Origin: Escherichia coli
GTDB lineage: Bacteria; Pseudomonadota; Gammaproteobacteria; Enterobacterales; Enterobacteriaceae
Length of the DNA stretch: 64,000 bases
Assembly (NCBI RefSeq): GCF_003018255.1
Contig: NZ_CP027440.1
Strand: one strand, 5' to 3'
The translations under genes and the position numbers were made by a program. The notes below the pieces were generated by a model, which worked only from the letters and a program-made list of their open reading frames with translations, was not told the DNA's origin and did no database searches. The stretch's first letter is position 1; every line of letters starts with the position of its first letter. Of the stretch, positions 55,676-62,811 are shown piece after piece.

Positions 55676-56281
55676 ATGACTATAAAAAATCTACCTGCCG
55701 ACTATTTATTGGCTGCGCAACAGGGTGATATCGATAAAGTAAAAACCTGCCTTGCGCTGGGTGTCGATATTAATACCTGCGATCGTCAGGGGAAAACGGC
55801 AATTACGCTGGCAAGTTTATATCAGCAATATGCTTGCGTTCAGGCATTAATTGATGCCGGAGCGGATATTAATAAGCAAGATCATACCTGTTTAAATCCT
55901 TTTTTAATTAGCTGTCTGAACGATGATTTAACGCTACTACGAATTATTTTACCGGCTAAACCCGATCTTAATTGCGTCACCCGTTTTGGCGGTGTCGGCC
56001 TGACGCCTGCCTGTGAAAAAGGCCATTTAAATATTGTAAAAGAGCTTTTGGCGCATACGGAGATTAACGTTAACCAGACCAACCATGTTGGCTGGACGCC
56101 GCTACTGGAAGCGATTGTGCTTAATGATGGCGGGATTAAACAGCAGGCGATTGTCCAGTTATTGCTGGAACACGGTGCCAGCCCGCACATGACGGATAAA
56201 TATGGCAAAACGCCGCTGGAACTGGCGCGGGAACGAGGCTTTGAAGAGATTGCGCAGTTACTGATTGCCGCAGGTGCATAA
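55676..56281 (+). CDS. yahD: Ankyrin-repeat protein YahD
   Basis: 201-aa ORF with ankyrin repeats. Confidence 0.85.
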   Translation: MTIKNLPADYLLAAQQGDIDKVKTCLALGVDINTCDRQGKTAITLASLYQQYACVQALIDAGADINKQDHTCLNPFLISCLNDDLTLLRIILPAKPDLNCVTRFGGVGLTPACEKGHLNIVKELLAHTEINVNQTNHVGWTPLLEAIVLNDGGIKQQAIVQLLLEHGASPHMTDKYGKTPLELARERGFEEIAQLLIAAGA

Positions 56282-56320
56282 ACCGGGAGGCTTGCTATCA
56301 ACACACCAGAAAGACGGTGT

Positions 56321-57184
56321 GTGTGGGCGCTAACTGCGGATGCTGATTTTCTGGCGCAGCGGGGGCAAGGACAGGTTGAACAGGTCTTTGCCAGAGCGGT
56401 AAATATCGCACTTCCGGCCCGCCAGCAGTTGCTGACGCTGCTTTGTGAAGAGTACGACAATGCGCCAAACAGTTGTCGGTTGGCACTCACTCACTTTGAT
56501 GGTCTGTTCCGGCATGGTGATAAGGTTCAGTTTGACGATCAAGGCATTACGGTTGGTCAACATCTTCATATAGAGATGAGTCGTTGTCGGCGTTGGCTGT
56601 CCCCAACCTTGCAAATGGCCGCTGTGAATTTTCACCTTATCGCCTGGCAACAGTGGCATGACATTATTCATCAGCACCTGGGGGAAAATGAAACCCTGTT
56701 TAATTATTGCGGCGATAATCCGTTTTATCAGGCGTTAAATAAAGAATTACATATTAAACGACGGGCAGTTATTCAGGCCGTAAACGATAAACAAAATATC
56801 GCCTCAGCAGTCGCCAGTATGATGGGCTTAGGGATTGGCCTTACGCCATCAGCCGACGATTATTTAACAGGTCTGGCGCTTATTTTATTTATTTCCGGAC
56901 ATCCGGCGGAAAAATACAAAGAGGAATTTTATCTCGGTCTGCAATGCGGCAGAAATAATACCACGTTATTAAGTGCCATAACGCTGGAAGCCGCATTACA
57001 ACAACGCTGCCGGGAAAATATTCATCGTTTTATTCATAACATTATTTATGACATCCCTGGGAACGCAACTCAGGCAATAGAAAAAATTAAACATATTGGC
57101 TCCAGTTCCGGCTGCGACATGCTGTATGGCATGGCCGATGGTTGTGCGCTGAGCCAAACCTACGGAGGGAATTATGTCAGTTAA
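56321..57184 (+). CDS. yahE: Uncharacterised protein YahE
   Basis: 287-aa ORF; overlaps yahF start. Confidence 0.8.
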   Translation: MWALTADADFLAQRGQGQVEQVFARAVNIALPARQQLLTLLCEEYDNAPNSCRLALTHFDGLFRHGDKVQFDDQGITVGQHLHIEMSRCRRWLSPTLQMAAVNFHLIAWQQWHDIIHQHLGENETLFNYCGDNPFYQALNKELHIKRRAVIQAVNDKQNIASAVASMMGLGIGLTPSADDYLTGLALILFISGHPAEKYKEEFYLGLQCGRNNTTLLSAITLEAALQQRCRENIHRFIHNIIYDIPGNATQAIEKIKHIGSSSGCDMLYGMADGCALSQTYGGNYVS

Positions 57185-60468: not shown

Positions 60469-61419
60469 ATGAAAGAACTTGTGGTCGTTGCCATTGGTGG
60501 CAACAGCATTATCAAAGATAACGCCAGCCAGTCGATTGAGCATCAGGCGGAGGCGGTGAAAGCCGTCGCCGATACGGTGCTGGAAATGCTGGCTTCCGAT
60601 TACGACATTGTGCTGACCCACGGTAACGGGCCGCAGGTCGGGCTGGATTTACGCCGCGCGGAGATTGCTCACGAGCGCGAAGGGCTGCCCTTAACGCCGC
60701 TGGCAAACTGTGTGGCGGATACGCAAGGTGGCATTGGCTATCTGATCCAGCAGGCGCTGAACAACCGGCTGGCCCGCCACGGCGAGAAAAAAGCCGTCAC
60801 CGTGGTGACTCAGGTGGAAGTGGATAAAAACGATCCGGGATTTGCCCATCCCACCAAGCCTATCGGCGTATTCTTCAGTGAAAGCCAGCGTGACGAATTA
60901 CAAAAGGCAAACCCTGACTGGCGTTTTGTTGAAGATGCCGGACGGGGCTATCGCCGCGTGGTCGCCTCGCCGGAACCGCAACGTATTGTAGAAGCACCTG
61001 CCATTAAGGCCCTGATCCAACAAGGCTTTGTGGTGATTGGCGCGGGCGGCGGCGGAATTCCTGTGGTGTGCAGTGAAGCGGGAGATTACCAAAGCGTGGA
61101 CGCGGTTATCGACAAAGATCTCTCTACCGCGCTATTGGCCCGTGAAATTCACGCCGACATTCTGGTAATTACCACCGGCGTCGAAAAAGTGTGTATTCAC
61201 TTTGGCAAACCGCAGCAGCAGGCGCTGGATCGGGTGGATATTGCCACCATGACCCGCTATATGCAGGAAGGGCATTTCCCACCCGGCAGCATGTTGCCAA
61301 AAATCATCGCCAGCCTGACGTTCCTGGAGCAGGGCGGTAAAGAAGTGATTATCACCACGCCGGAATGCCTGCCTGCGGCGCTGCGTGGTGAAACGGGCAC
61401 CCATATTATTAAAACGTAA
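60469..61419 (+). CDS. yahI: Carbamate kinase-like protein YahI
   Basis: 316-aa ORF of the amino-acid/carbamate kinase family. Confidence 0.9.
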   Translation: MKELVVVAIGGNSIIKDNASQSIEHQAEAVKAVADTVLEMLASDYDIVLTHGNGPQVGLDLRRAEIAHEREGLPLTPLANCVADTQGGIGYLIQQALNNRLARHGEKKAVTVVTQVEVDKNDPGFAHPTKPIGVFFSESQRDELQKANPDWRFVEDAGRGYRRVVASPEPQRIVEAPAIKALIQQGFVVIGAGGGGIPVVCSEAGDYQSVDAVIDKDLSTALLAREIHADILVITTGVEKVCIHFGKPQQQALDRVDIATMTRYMQEGHFPPGSMLPKIIASLTFLEQGGKEVIITTPECLPAALRGETGTHIIKT

Positions 61420-61428
61420 GGACGTAAG

Positions 61429-62811
61429 ATGAAAGAAAACAATAGCCGCCGTGAGTTTCTGAGCCAGAGCGGTAAGATGGTCACCGCCGCCGCGCTGTTT
61501 GGTACCTCTGTGCCGCTCGCCCATGCGGCAGTCTCTGGCACAATCCATTGCGACGCGAATAACACCATGAAAATCACTGACCCGCACTACTATCTCGACA
61601 ACGTGTTGCTGGAAACCGGTTTTGACTACGAAAATGGCGTGGCGGTGCAGACCCGCACGGCGCGCCAGACTGTGGAAATTCAGAACGGCAAAATTGTTGC
61701 CCTGCGCGAGAACAATCAGCATCCGGACGCCACGCTGCCGCACTATGACGCTGGCGGTAAGCTGATGCTGCCCACCACCCGCGACATGCATATTCATCTC
61801 GACAAAACCTTCTATGGCGGGCCGTGGCGCTCGCTCAATCGTCCGGCAGGCACCACCATCCAGGACATGATCAAACTCGAGCAGAAAATGCTGCCGGAGT
61901 TGCAACCGTACACTCAGGAAAGGGCGGAAAAACTGATTGATTTATTGCAGTCGAAAGGCACTACCATTGCCCGCAGCCACTGCAATATCGAACCGGTTTC
62001 CGGCCTGAAAAATCTGCAAAATTTGCAGGCGGTTCTGGCGCGACGTCAGGCGGGCTTCGAGTGTGAAATTGTCGCCTTCCCGCAGCACGGTTTGCTGCTG
62101 TCGAAATCAGAACCCTTAATGCGCGAAGCGATGCAGGCGGGGGCGCATTACGTCGGCGGGCTGGACCCGACCAGTGTTGATGGCGCGATGGAAAAATCCC
62201 TCGACACCATGTTCCAGATTGCGCTGGACTACGACAAAGGCGTCGATATTCACCTGCACGAAACCACTCCGGCAGGCGTGGCAGCCATCAATTATATGGT
62301 TGAAACGGTAGAGAAAACGCCACAGCTGAAGGGCAAGCTGACCATCAGCCACGCCTTCGCGCTGGCAACGCTCAACGAACAACAGGTAGATGAACTGGCG
62401 CACCGGATGGCGGCGCAGCAAATTTCTATCGCCTCGACGGTGCCGATTGGCACGCTACATATGCCGCTCAAACAGTTGCACGACAAAGGCGTAAAAGTGA
62501 TGACTGGCACCGACAGCGTTATCGACCACTGGTCGCCTTACGGCCTGGGCGACATGCTGGAAAAAGCCAATCTGTACGCGCAGCTCTATATTCGCCCTAA
62601 CGAACAGAATTTGTCCCGTTCGCTGTTTTTAGCCACTGGCGATGTATTGCCGCTGAATGAAAAAGGCGAGCGCGTGTGGCCCAAAGCGCAGGATGACGCC
62701 AGTTTTGTGCTGGTGGACGCCTCCTGTTCCGCCGAGGCGGTGGCGCGTATCTCGCCGAGAACGGCGACGTTCCATAAAGGGCAACTGGTGTGGGGGAGTG
62801 TGGCAGGTTGA
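61429..62811 (+). CDS. yahJ: Amidohydrolase/deaminase YahJ with twin-arginine (Tat) signal peptide
   Basis: 460-aa ORF; N-terminal SRREFL motif plus hydrophobic stretch ending AHA. Confidence 0.85.
   Translation: MKENNSRREFLSQSGKMVTAAALFGTSVPLAHAAVSGTIHCDANNTMKITDPHYYLDNVLLETGFDYENGVAVQTRTARQTVEIQNGKIVALRENNQHPDATLPHYDAGGKLMLPTTRDMHIHLDKTFYGGPWRSLNRPAGTTIQDMIKLEQKMLPELQPYTQERAEKLIDLLQSKGTTIARSHCNIEPVSGLKNLQNLQAVLARRQAGFECEIVAFPQHGLLLSKSEPLMREAMQAGAHYVGGLDPTSVDGAMEKSLDTMFQIALDYDKGVDIHLHETTPAGVAAINYMVETVEKTPQLKGKLTISHAFALATLNEQQVDELAHRMAAQQISIASTVPIGTLHMPLKQLHDKGVKVMTGTDSVIDHWSPYGLGDMLEKANLYAQLYIRPNEQNLSRSLFLATGDVLPLNEKGERVWPKAQDDASFVLVDASCSAEAVARISPRTATFHKGQLVWGSVAG

Follow-up and report, generated by a model that had tools for sequence, protein, structure and literature searches.

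The yah Cluster of Escherichia coli as a Probable Chromosomal Version of a Widespread, Horizontally Mobile Carbamoyl-Phosphate-Forming Catabolic Module

The yah cluster of Escherichia coli was analysed here in a stretch of 64,000 nucleotides (contig NZ_CP027440.1 of assembly GCF_003018255.1; "the window" below), where the genes yahD, yahE, yahF, yahG, yahI, and yahJ encode, in this order, an ankyrin-repeat protein, homologues of the three AllFGH carbamoyltransferase subunits (YahE, YahF, and YahG), a carbamate kinase homologue, and a deaminase-like amidohydrolase, with the regulator gene yahB and the membrane protein gene yahC upstream on the opposite strand. We propose, with a probability of about 0.6, that this cluster is the chromosomal E. 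coli version of a widespread and horizontally mobile catabolic module that phosphorolyses an N-carbamoyl compound to carbamoyl phosphate, from which ATP would be made. The query comprised ~9 kb around the cluster, and the closest annotated chromosome compared was that of E. coli JNE23-011 (99.4% identity), whose RefSeq annotation agrees with the mechanical list of open reading frames (ORFs) of the window.

Paralogy with the Allantoin-Region Operon

Each protein was compared directly with the allantoin region of E. coli K-12 (fdrA-ylbE-ylbF-ybcF, encoding AllF, AllG, AllH, and AllK), and all three enzyme subunits, the kinase, and the regulator have counterparts there, given that YahE corresponds to AllH and YahB is an AllS paralogue. 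The identities are 38% between YahF and AllF, or FdrA (E 9e-102), 45% between YahG and AllG, or YlbE (E 4e-120), 25% between YahE and AllH, or YlbF (E 1e-10), 38% between YahI and AllK, or YbcF (E 3e-57), and 38% between YahB and K-12 AllS (E 4e-73). A first-pass annotation of the window had suggested that the FdrA-like/DUF1116/carbamate-kinase set is paralogous to the allantoin-region cluster, and these identities of 25–45% bear it out; its assignments of the F and G proteins and of the kinase stand, whereas YahE, which it had left unassigned, is here an AllH (DUF2877) subunit. The link of the allantoin cluster to oxamate and carbamoyl phosphate, also drawn in that annotation, is now biochemically defined for AllFGH and AllK (PMC11326118, PMC9843812): purified AllF-AllG-AllH, the oxamate (oxamic) carbamoyltransferase, interconverts oxamate plus carbamoyl phosphate and oxalurate plus inorganic phosphate, with no coenzyme A (CoA) term in the reaction (PMC11326118), and allK encodes the catabolic carbamate kinase (PMC11326118, PMC9843812). 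The yah genes are mentioned in neither of these two papers.

Profile searches uphold the family assignments previously given to the cluster (FdrA-like, DUF1116, carbamate kinase, amidohydrolase, and ankyrin). YahF passes the NCBIfam FdrA model NF004760 with 492 bits (cut-off 433), contains CoA_binding and Ligase_CoA domains, and matches the FdrA structure PDB 3dmy at E 1.4e-82; YahE matches Pfam AllH (PF11392) at E 1.4e-27. YahG matches PDB 3clq, a solved and unnamed protein, at E 2.5e-196 and ~75% identity as read off the printed alignment, and is far closer to it than to its own paralogue AllG. In RefSeq, YahG is named "YlbE family protein" and YahF "acyl-CoA synthetase FdrA". Over residues 1–316, YahI scores 643 bits against NCBIfam PRK12352/NF009007 (cut-off 266), and it matches the solved carbamate kinases 1e19 (E 2.5e-82) and 1b7b (E 3.9e-73). 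The best NCBIfam match of YahB is AllS, at 268 bits and thus below the equivalog cut-off of 372, followed by PunR. A LysR-type regulator divergent from its target gene is the usual arrangement, and yahB adjoins yahD in all related loci with upstream sequence.

The boundary between the F and G genes has shifted between the two paralogous operons, since YahF is without the last ~50 residues of AllF, and the N-terminal ~55 residues of YahG correspond to this AllF tail: YahG residues 2–53 (58721–58880 in the window) align with AllF residues 504–554 (18190–18345 of the K-12 locus L002) at 29% identity (E 7e-7). Such a moved boundary fits F and G subunits that form one complex.

A Separate Orthologous Group across Phyla

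A genome scan with YahG gave 475 loci, and the 80 of them that were covered all lie in Enterobacterales, bar one in Aeromonas, with 86–100% identity. Through gene X, which encodes a membrane protein described below, the same cluster was also reached in Brevibacillus, Paenibacillus, Neobacillus, Janthinobacterium, Bosea, Pasteurella, Photobacterium, and Ignatzschineria, and cross-phylum identities to the window proteins were measured in five of these eight taxa. Across phyla, YahG keeps 72–79% identity vs. ~46% to the All type, YahF 61–72% vs. ~36%, and YahI 46–63% vs. ~36%; YahD keeps 56–69% and has no All-type counterpart, and only YahE is as distant within the group (24–30%) as from the All type (23–33%, partly over short stretches). 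All Yah-type AllG homologues measure 471–476 amino acids and all AllF homologues 514–516 amino acids, lengths that reflect the shifted gene boundary, which is common to all of them. Judged by sequence, the Yah-type genes are therefore a separate orthologous group present in Firmicutes as well as Alpha- and Betaproteobacteria, and the yah cluster is a paralogue, not an orthologue, of AllFGH/AllK.

A core of ankyrin protein, AllH, AllF, AllG, X, and carbamate kinase, accompanied by a LysR or PucR regulator, recurs in Brevibacillus, Janthinobacterium, Bosea, Pasteurella, Paenibacillus, Neobacillus, and Ignatzschineria, with the provisos that no ankyrin gene was identified in Neobacillus and that the stretch covered there excludes the regulator. 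In Photobacterium, X, AllF, and AllG are found together with divergent AllH and LysR genes, and no carbamate kinase within the stretch covered. The position of yahI, 3' of yahEFG on the same strand, is thus part of a carbamate kinase linkage kept across phyla. The ankyrin protein is present in every Yah-type cluster where its gene is identifiable and is absent from allFGHK: the YahD orthologues with the above 56–69% identity are those of Brevibacillus, Janthinobacterium, and Pasteurella, and an ankyrin-TPR fusion takes the place of YahD in Bosea and Paenibacillus. A second transporter of NCS1 type also recurs in these clusters, and its Brevibacillus copy scores best against allantoin permease, with 444 bits (cut-off 620). 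Together with the AllS-like LysR or PucR regulators and the deaminases described below, the NCS1 transporter points to a purine- or ureide-like substrate.

In both the Yah and the All system, members of these three protein families are encoded together with a carbamate kinase in a tight operon of co-oriented genes, an AllS-like LysR gene lies nearby, and the type of reaction is probably shared as well, namely the phosphorolysis of an N-carbamoyl compound to carbamoyl phosphate and on to ATP. They differ in gene order (H-F-G-K in Yah vs. F-G-H-K in All), in the ~50 residues that end the F subunit in All but begin the G subunit in Yah, and in the obligatory ankyrin partner and the association with permease X and deaminases, with no allantoin-processing enzymes near the Yah genes. 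A third E. coli module of this kind lies on the tkt1 island of extraintestinal pathogenic E. coli (ExPEC; APEC O1, and GR29 of BEN2908), where FdrA, DUF1116, and DUF2877 proteins and a carbamate kinase stand beside a hydrolase and a nucleobase-type (NCS1) permease (PMC3349570, PMC12928451); in contrast with the Yah type, its DUF1116 protein is only 46% identical to YahG, its partner hydrolase belongs to the isochorismatase/RutB family and is not of YahJ type, and an ankyrin gene has not been reported for it. A description of the Yah type as a group of its own, spanning phyla and containing an ankyrin protein, was not found in the searchable literature.

Permease X, Its Loss, and yahC

The distance between yahG and yahI is bimodal among related loci, either 89–319 nt, in Escherichia, Pseudocitrobacter, Kluyvera, Citrobacter amalonaticus, Klebsiella, and Raoultella, or 1565–2240 nt. 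The long gaps hold a membrane protein of 516–526 amino acids, which we call X and which always lies between yahG and yahI. The distribution of X is strictly complementary to that of yahC, given that, of the two genes, 55 of 71 informative related loci carry only X and 16 only yahC, without a single locus that has both or lacks both; yahC was therefore found only in cluster versions without permease X. Since X belongs to the cluster in most Enterobacterales and in every distant taxon in which the cluster was sampled, the simplest reading is that X is ancestral and that the layout of Escherichia type is a derived version, with X lost and yahC present. An alignment of the spacers was too poor (26% mean column identity) to place the end-points of the deletion, and only ~25 nt before the yahI start look shared.

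X is extremely conserved, with 75% mean column identity across phyla, and is called "xanthine permease / AGZA family" in the source databases. No match was found for it in Pfam, NCBIfam, or PDB sequences. Its AlphaFold model (predicted local distance difference test 84, predicted template-modelling score 0.81) has a 7+7 transmembrane UraA fold, to which Foldseek assigns a probability of 1.0 for SVCT1, UraA, UapA, and AZG1/2, and equally for SLC26Dg, BicA, and SLC26A3; profile comparison with hhalign gave a probability of 4.5% against GhxQ and 0.7% against XanQ. On the strength of this model, we consider the superfamily (UraA/SLC26 fold) settled. A sequence-based assignment of X to AzgA or to NAT found no support, with Pfam, NCBIfam, and PDB empty and hhalign insignificant, so that only the fold-level assignment stands. 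Neither X nor its loss at the site of the repeat array, nor the complementary yahC, was found in the searchable literature.

A Mobile Second Copy in E. coli

The X gene is present in 142 of 5426 complete E. coli genomes, in 106 plasmid and 46 chromosomal places. It belongs there to a module flanked by insertion sequences (IS) and composed of a LysR gene followed by ankyrin-DUF2877-FdrA-DUF1116-X-carbamate kinase, without yahJ, as in 3107–11540 of plasmid pMTY1886_IncF. The proteins of this mobile copy are 72–92% identical to those of the window, except for YahE with 53%, and the chromosome of E. coli strain 104 carries both the mobile copy and the native yah locus. As this copy and the clusters of Janthinobacterium and Ignatzschineria have no deaminase, the self-sufficient core would consist of the regulator, the ankyrin protein, the H, F, and G subunits, X, and the kinase. 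This mobile E. coli copy, mostly plasmid-borne, was not found in the searchable literature.

YahJ and the Deaminase Slot

YahJ begins with MKENNSRREFLSQSGKMVTAAALFGTSVPLAHA, in which the twin-arginine motif SRREFL is followed by the hydrophobic stretch GKMVTAAALFGTSVPL and by AHA, an AxA cleavage site; the signal peptide would span approximately residues 1–33 (61429–61527). The first-pass annotation had read this as a twin-arginine translocation (Tat) signal that implies a periplasmic deamination ahead of the cytoplasmic steps, and the motif is indeed kept, as [SG]RRxF[LI], throughout the YahJ orthologues examined in Enterobacterales, Aeromonas, and Pasteurella. YahJ has been listed as a predicted Tat substrate (PMC7549933, PMC3027627), and a yahJ deletion in an ExPEC mouse model caused a small but significant competitive defect, with a competitive index (CI) of 0.70 (PMC7549933).

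A deaminase type is supported as well, with CodA-type residues kept in the alignment. H121, H123, Q219, H275, H308, and D362 are invariant between YahJ, CodA, and four relatives, and E278 matches CodA and is Asp in a Shinella homologue; we take the HxH, the two further His, and the Asp to be metal-binding and catalytic, and the Gln to be substrate-binding, after the positions of CodA to which they align. YahJ scores 716 bits against the NCBIfam amidohydrolase model PRK06846 (cut-off 447), an uncharacterised subfamily, and matches Pfam Amidohydro_3/1; its nearest solved relatives in the PDB are the AtzC-like 6nbo (E 4e-44), AtzC, and CodA/cytosine deaminases. It belongs to no family with a defined substrate, PRK06846 being the only cut-off passed, as it reaches only 70–103 bits against cytosine deaminase models (cut-offs 403–483) and 20 bits against the guanine deaminase model (cut-off 375). 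YahJ has its fold family and its metal-binding and catalytic positions in common with CodA, a cytosine/isoguanine deaminase, and with AtzC, the N-isopropylammelide isopropylaminohydrolase, and differs from CodA, with which it is 23% identical, in having a Tat signal and an extra N-terminal segment of ~45 residues. A relationship to the cyclic amidase AllB, or allantoinase, was rejected, since the BLASTP match (E 0.003) covers the N-terminal beta-domain only and the nearest solved relatives are deaminases.

As a member of the module, YahJ is present here, as had been annotated before, and yet it lies outside the conserved core. The Tat type occurs in Enterobacterales and Pasteurella; the slot is filled by a signal-less PRK05985 amidohydrolase in Bosea and by a CDA-fold deaminase of 149–152 amino acids in Brevibacillus and Neobacillus, and no deaminase is present in the Janthinobacterium and Ignatzschineria clusters or in the mobile E. 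coli copy. This non-orthologous replacement suggests that deamination feeds the pathway from outside the core. In Shinella (L090, 7026–11545), a YahJ-like amidohydrolase with a Tat-like SRRGFM motif stands beside an ornithine-cyclodeaminase/mu-crystallin-family gene and permease X. YahEFG and carbamate kinase are absent from this Shinella locus, so the link between X and the YahJ type does not require the carbamoyltransferase.

Maintenance of the Chromosomal Cluster

Ratios of nonsynonymous to synonymous substitution (dN/dS) were obtained between the window and K-12, E. albertii, and C. amalonaticus or Raoultella, all without X. They are 0.02–0.04 for YahG, 0.015–0.03 for YahB, 0.02–0.06 for YahI, 0.04–0.07 for YahJ, 0.05–0.09 for YahF, 0.09–0.17 for YahC, ~0.1 for YahD, and 0.15–0.29 for YahE, the fastest-evolving and least constrained member. 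All yah genes are under purifying selection, and these low values within the X-less lineage exclude simple decay. The cluster is kept at 95–99% identity in most E. coli genomes; the figure of 3257 out of 5426 genomes at ≥80% coverage is an undercount, since the repeat array interrupts K-12-type matches, whose coverage is then given as 66%. Synonymous divergence is mosaic, with dS to K-12 of 0.05–0.07 for yahD and yahE and 0.14–0.24 for the other genes (53897–62811), and dS to E. albertii of 0.67–0.80 for yahB and yahC and 0.18–0.33 for yahD to yahJ, which suggests recombination breakpoints inside the locus.

Proposed Pathway and Alternatives

In the proposed pathway, an N-carbamoyl compound, most likely an N-acylurea-like ureide, would be phosphorolysed by YahF and YahG with the help of YahE, the products being carbamoyl phosphate and the de-carbamoylated amide or amine; the YahD ankyrin protein would be a probable scaffold for these three subunits. 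By analogy, the succinyl-CoA-synthetase-alpha-like fold of YahF would fit this chemistry, in which an activated acyl group and phosphate give an acyl phosphate. YahI would then pass carbamoyl phosphate's phosphate group on to ADP, producing ATP, NH3, and CO2. YahJ may serve as an optional feeder, exported folded via Tat and deaminating an amino or imino precursor in the periplasm to an oxo or ureido form for subsequent uptake, and YahB may be the AllS-like LysR activator that induces the operon when the substrate is present. X would carry the substrate, and perhaps the product as well, across the membrane in the ancestral layout; in the version of Escherichia, Kluyvera, Klebsiella, and Raoultella, X would have been deleted, with yahC present instead, and YahC or another carrier may move the substrate in E. 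coli. In Escherichia and Pseudocitrobacter, the vacated spacer would then have been colonised by a variable-length array of bacterial interspersed mosaic elements (BIMEs), presumably transcribed with the operon, which may modulate yahDEFG relative to yahIJ and would mainly be a selfish occupant of the gap.

This scheme resembles the arginine and agmatine deiminase pathways, in which the hydrolytic removal of NH3 by a deiminase leaves a ureido group whose phosphorolysis by a catabolic carbamoyltransferase gives carbamoyl phosphate and, through carbamate kinase, substrate-level ATP, with an operon-encoded antiporter as carrier. It differs from them in that the Yah carbamoyltransferase is of AllFGH type and lacks the ornithine or aspartate carbamoyltransferase fold, and in that the Yah deaminase is a metal-dependent amidohydrolase (of CDA fold in Bacillaceae), which is not guanidino-modifying and is predicted to be periplasmic in Enterobacterales.

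Several observations weigh against the proposed pathway. The conserved core has no ring-opening enzyme, so that a step would be missing if the substrate were heterocyclic. The yahE gene is completely absent from 25 of 78 related loci, mainly of Enterobacter type (Enterobacter, Leclercia, and Lelliottia), which are otherwise intact; in six measured loci of Enterobacter type, yahD and yahF are only 111–147 nt apart. Yet AllH-type subunits account for most of the activity of AllFGH (PMC11326118). The weak constraint on YahE and its absence from these loci match the published allH result, in which ~7% of the oxamate remains upon allH deletion or with allFG alone (PMC11326118). The score of YahI against the arcC equivalog TIGR00746, 345.3 bits, falls marginally under the cut-off of 358.25. 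X cannot be assigned to the nucleobase branch in preference to the organic-anion branch, given hhalign probabilities below 5% and a fold search that matches both; with X lost, the chromosomal E. coli cluster has no identified importer, and the replacement of X by YahC is a correlation only, which could reflect a single historical event. Consensus scans gave no plus-strand promoter or terminator within the cluster, and their overall counts did not exceed those of shuffled sequence, which speaks neither for nor against a single transcript. Lastly, in the 2024 review of the y-ome, yahC/E/G/H/I/J still figure among the uncharacterised genes, as a cluster "associated with repeat sites", and the searchable literature holds no biochemical or genetic test of any Yah protein.

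Among the alternatives, it is improbable, in our estimate, that YahEFG and YahI simply duplicate the oxamate carbamoyltransferase and its carbamate kinase, with oxalurate as their substrate, for instance oxalurate taken up from outside. Such an isozyme would suit the homology of the three subunits and the kinase to AllFGH and AllK, the AllS-like regulator, the best match of the Brevibacillus NCS1 transporter to allantoin permease, and the fact that X matches SLC26/SulP organic-anion transporters as strongly as nucleobase carriers, oxalurate being an anion. However, K-12 carries intact yahEFG, and its single allF or allG deletions nevertheless make zero oxamate, while its allH deletion makes ~7% and allFG alone restores the same ~7% (PMC11326118); the Yah proteins thus do not replace AllFGH in this strain under allantoin fermentation, which speaks against mere redundancy, although an uninduced yah operon could account for this as well. 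Identities of 61–79% within the Yah type vs. 36–46% to the All type follow the pattern of a separate specificity, and the ankyrin partner, the shifted F/G boundary, and the deaminases are without counterpart in allFGHK, so that the divergence, the boundary, and the K-12 deletions alike speak against orthology with AllFGH or the same oxalurate-oxamate specificity.

Still less probable is that the chromosomal cluster is a cryptic remnant left after the loss of its permease, with the repeat array marking a decaying locus. X is certainly missing from the chromosomal locus, the spacer holds selfish repeats of variable number plus IS1397 or IS621 in some strains, the cluster is listed as uncharacterised without phenotype, and 142 genomes have acquired a complete second copy including X; yet every gene is intact, dN/dS is 0.02–0.09 for YahB, YahF, YahG, YahI, and YahJ within the X-less lineage, the retention in most E. 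coli genomes described above is high, and the yahJ deletion has its CI of 0.70 in the ExPEC mouse model (PMC7549933). We give the slightest chance of all to YahF and YahG being an acyl-CoA-synthetase-type enzyme that acts on a CoA thioester, with the kinase homologue and the amidohydrolase either unrelated or biosynthetic, that is, carbamoyl-phosphate-forming. The CoA_binding and Ligase_CoA domains of YahF, its matches to the succinyl-CoA synthetase alpha subunit, and its RefSeq name lend themselves to this idea, but AllF, of the same architecture, catalyses carbamoyl transfer with AllG and AllH and no CoA term (PMC11326118), the cluster encodes no ATP-grasp beta subunit, and a carbamate kinase gene belongs to the cluster in nearly all phyla sampled.

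If the catabolic module proposed here is real, anaerobic gut and urinary-tract bacteria would have one more route of substrate-level phosphorylation. The genes, their family names, the REP23/"yahH" array, and the Tat signal are already in databases or papers. Within the E. coli y-ome, the cluster ranks among the denser blocks, and the yah genes make up a second system that is complete, under selection, and distinct, and that has an ankyrin partner and, in most bacteria, a conserved dedicated carrier; AllFGH, which was de-orphaned only in 2024, represents a new and structurally unexplained class of carbamoyltransferase, of which Yah would be a second family member for mechanistic work. As K-12 lacks the ancestral permease, it is probably a poor host in which to look for a phenotype. 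A more far-reaching reading, which we put forward tentatively and consider unlikely to hold in full, is that of a phylum-spanning, plasmid-transmissible, ATP-yielding pathway for a common nitrogen-rich compound, with the ankyrin protein as a true enzyme subunit, a periplasmic Tat-dependent deamination as the first step in Gram-negative bacteria, and an E. coli copy rewired with YahC in place of a UraA-fold carrier. In that reading, the compound could be an acylguanidine or an amino-heterocycle (creatinine-, guanine-, or urate-oxidation-derived) that is deaminated to an acylurea.

The Repeat Array between yahG and yahI

The 329-nt spacer between yahG and yahI contains a tandem array of three head-to-tail 93-nt units, with 92% and 77% identity to the reference unit. 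Each unit is made of one Y-type repetitive extragenic palindromic (REP) element on the plus strand and one Z2-type REP on the minus strand, giving six REPs in total, and no REP match arose by chance in 100 shuffles of the window. The "triple REP array" of the first-pass annotation, said to split the operon, is thus real and correctly placed, except that it consists of six REPs in three BIME units and that a simple split does not describe it, since it sits where most relatives carry the permease gene. In each E. coli genome, the cluster query hits 21 places in the median; we attribute this number to REP copies elsewhere.

The content of this spacer varies widely. E. whittamii has two BIME units, the window three, and K-12 four, and the array of enterohaemorrhagic E. 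coli (EHEC) has five, with RNA-seq reads and ribosome footprints across it (PMC4765031), which are the sole and indirect evidence for co-transcription of the cluster. The array has already been described as REP23/"yahH", a REP/BIME element and rejected ORF (PMC11551758, PMC4765031), and that of the window is the same repeat family at the same locus as in K-12 and EHEC, differing in its number of units. Among the other X-less loci, E. coli-type REPs occupy the spacer in Escherichia and Pseudocitrobacter, other palindromes in Kluyvera and Klebsiella, and little beyond one hairpin in Raoultella and C. amalonaticus. Between yahG and yahI, IS1397 is annotated in one strain (L094, 4736–6084), and IS621, an IS110-family element known for bridge-RNA recombination, in another (L095, 4837–5817). 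Both are REP-associated IS elements (PMC1525189). The variable filling across genera and the IS insertions suggest that the array behaves mainly as a mobile or selfish occupant of the vacated spacer, and the variability among relatives suggests that any role in the mRNA is secondary.

Against this stands the possibility, which we judge doubtful, that the array is a selected regulatory element and not a neutral filler, setting the ratio of yahDEFG to yahIJ by protecting the mRNA 3' end or damping translation. REPs can stabilise upstream mRNA, and REPs less than ~15 nt from a stop codon have been reported to lower the translation of the upstream gene via ribosome stalling. The first REP begins 13 nt past the yahG stop (60137–60153), the array as RNA folds very stably (−138 kcal/mol, z −4.6), and the transcription and footprints in EHEC (PMC4765031) point the same way, whereas the change from two to five units among close relatives, the unrelated palindromes or near-empty spacers of Kluyvera, Klebsiella, Raoultella, and C. 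amalonaticus, the only ~26 nt before yahI in X-containing clusters, and the IS elements in some strains all argue for an occupant of the gap.

Two matches to Rfam naRNA4 (RF02564) on the minus strand, at 60207–60276 and 60300–60369 (60.4 and 71.8 bits; gathering score 59.5), were rejected as a dedicated small RNA gene, since this family derives from the REP element and the matches reflect REP similarity. Two plus-strand ORFs run through the array, 60060–60437 (125 amino acids) and 60158–60472 (104 amino acids), of which the second is at the "yahH" position; the best-matching genome annotates there a similar but shorter ORF as hypothetical.

Gene Layout and Neighbourhood

The ORF coordinates in Table 1 agree with the earlier description of six co-oriented, tightly packed genes with overlaps of yahE with yahF and of yahF with yahG, which amount to 11 nt and 1 nt, respectively; the gaps are 39 nt between yahD and yahE and 9 nt between yahI and yahJ.

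Table 1. Coordinates of the yah genes and repeat elements in the window.
Feature	Position	Strand	Description
yahB	53897..54829	-	LysR-type regulator, AllS paralogue, divergent from yahD
yahC	54921..55418	-	DUF1097 membrane protein (Pfam DUF1097, E 3.5e-26)
yahD	55676..56281	+	Cytoplasmic ankyrin-repeat protein, first gene of the operon (ankyrin profile matches)
yahE	56321..57184	+	AllH-type (DUF2877) subunit
yahF	57174..58721	+	AllF/FdrA-type subunit, succinyl-CoA-synthetase-alpha-like fold
yahG	58721..60139	+	AllG/YlbE-type (DUF1116, PF06545) subunit
BIME array (REP23, phantom ORF "yahH")	60153..60431		3 x 93 nt
Y-type REPs	60153-60186, 60246-60279, 60339-60372	+	REP matches
Z2-type REPs	60204-60232, 60297-60325, 60390-60418	-	REP matches
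yahI	60469..61419	+	Carbamate kinase family, AllK paralogue
yahJ	61429..62811	+	Deaminase-like, metal-dependent amidohydrolase of CodA/AtzC type, predicted Tat substrate

What lies to the right of the cluster differs between strains: an ASCH-domain gene lies 3' of yahJ in the window (63080–64000) and is followed, in the near-identical genome and past the window end, by an autoinducer-2-type ABC transporter, whereas K-12 has yahK-yahL-yahM at this flank.

Literature searches for a function of YahB, of YahJ, or of the DUF families yielded only lists. A clone covering yahD-yahE-yahF (UTI89 361,550–364,162) was 17-fold enriched among filamentation-causing overexpression clones (PMC6206680), a result reminiscent of how FdrA first got its name, as a multicopy suppressor of ftsH mutations (PMC11326118).

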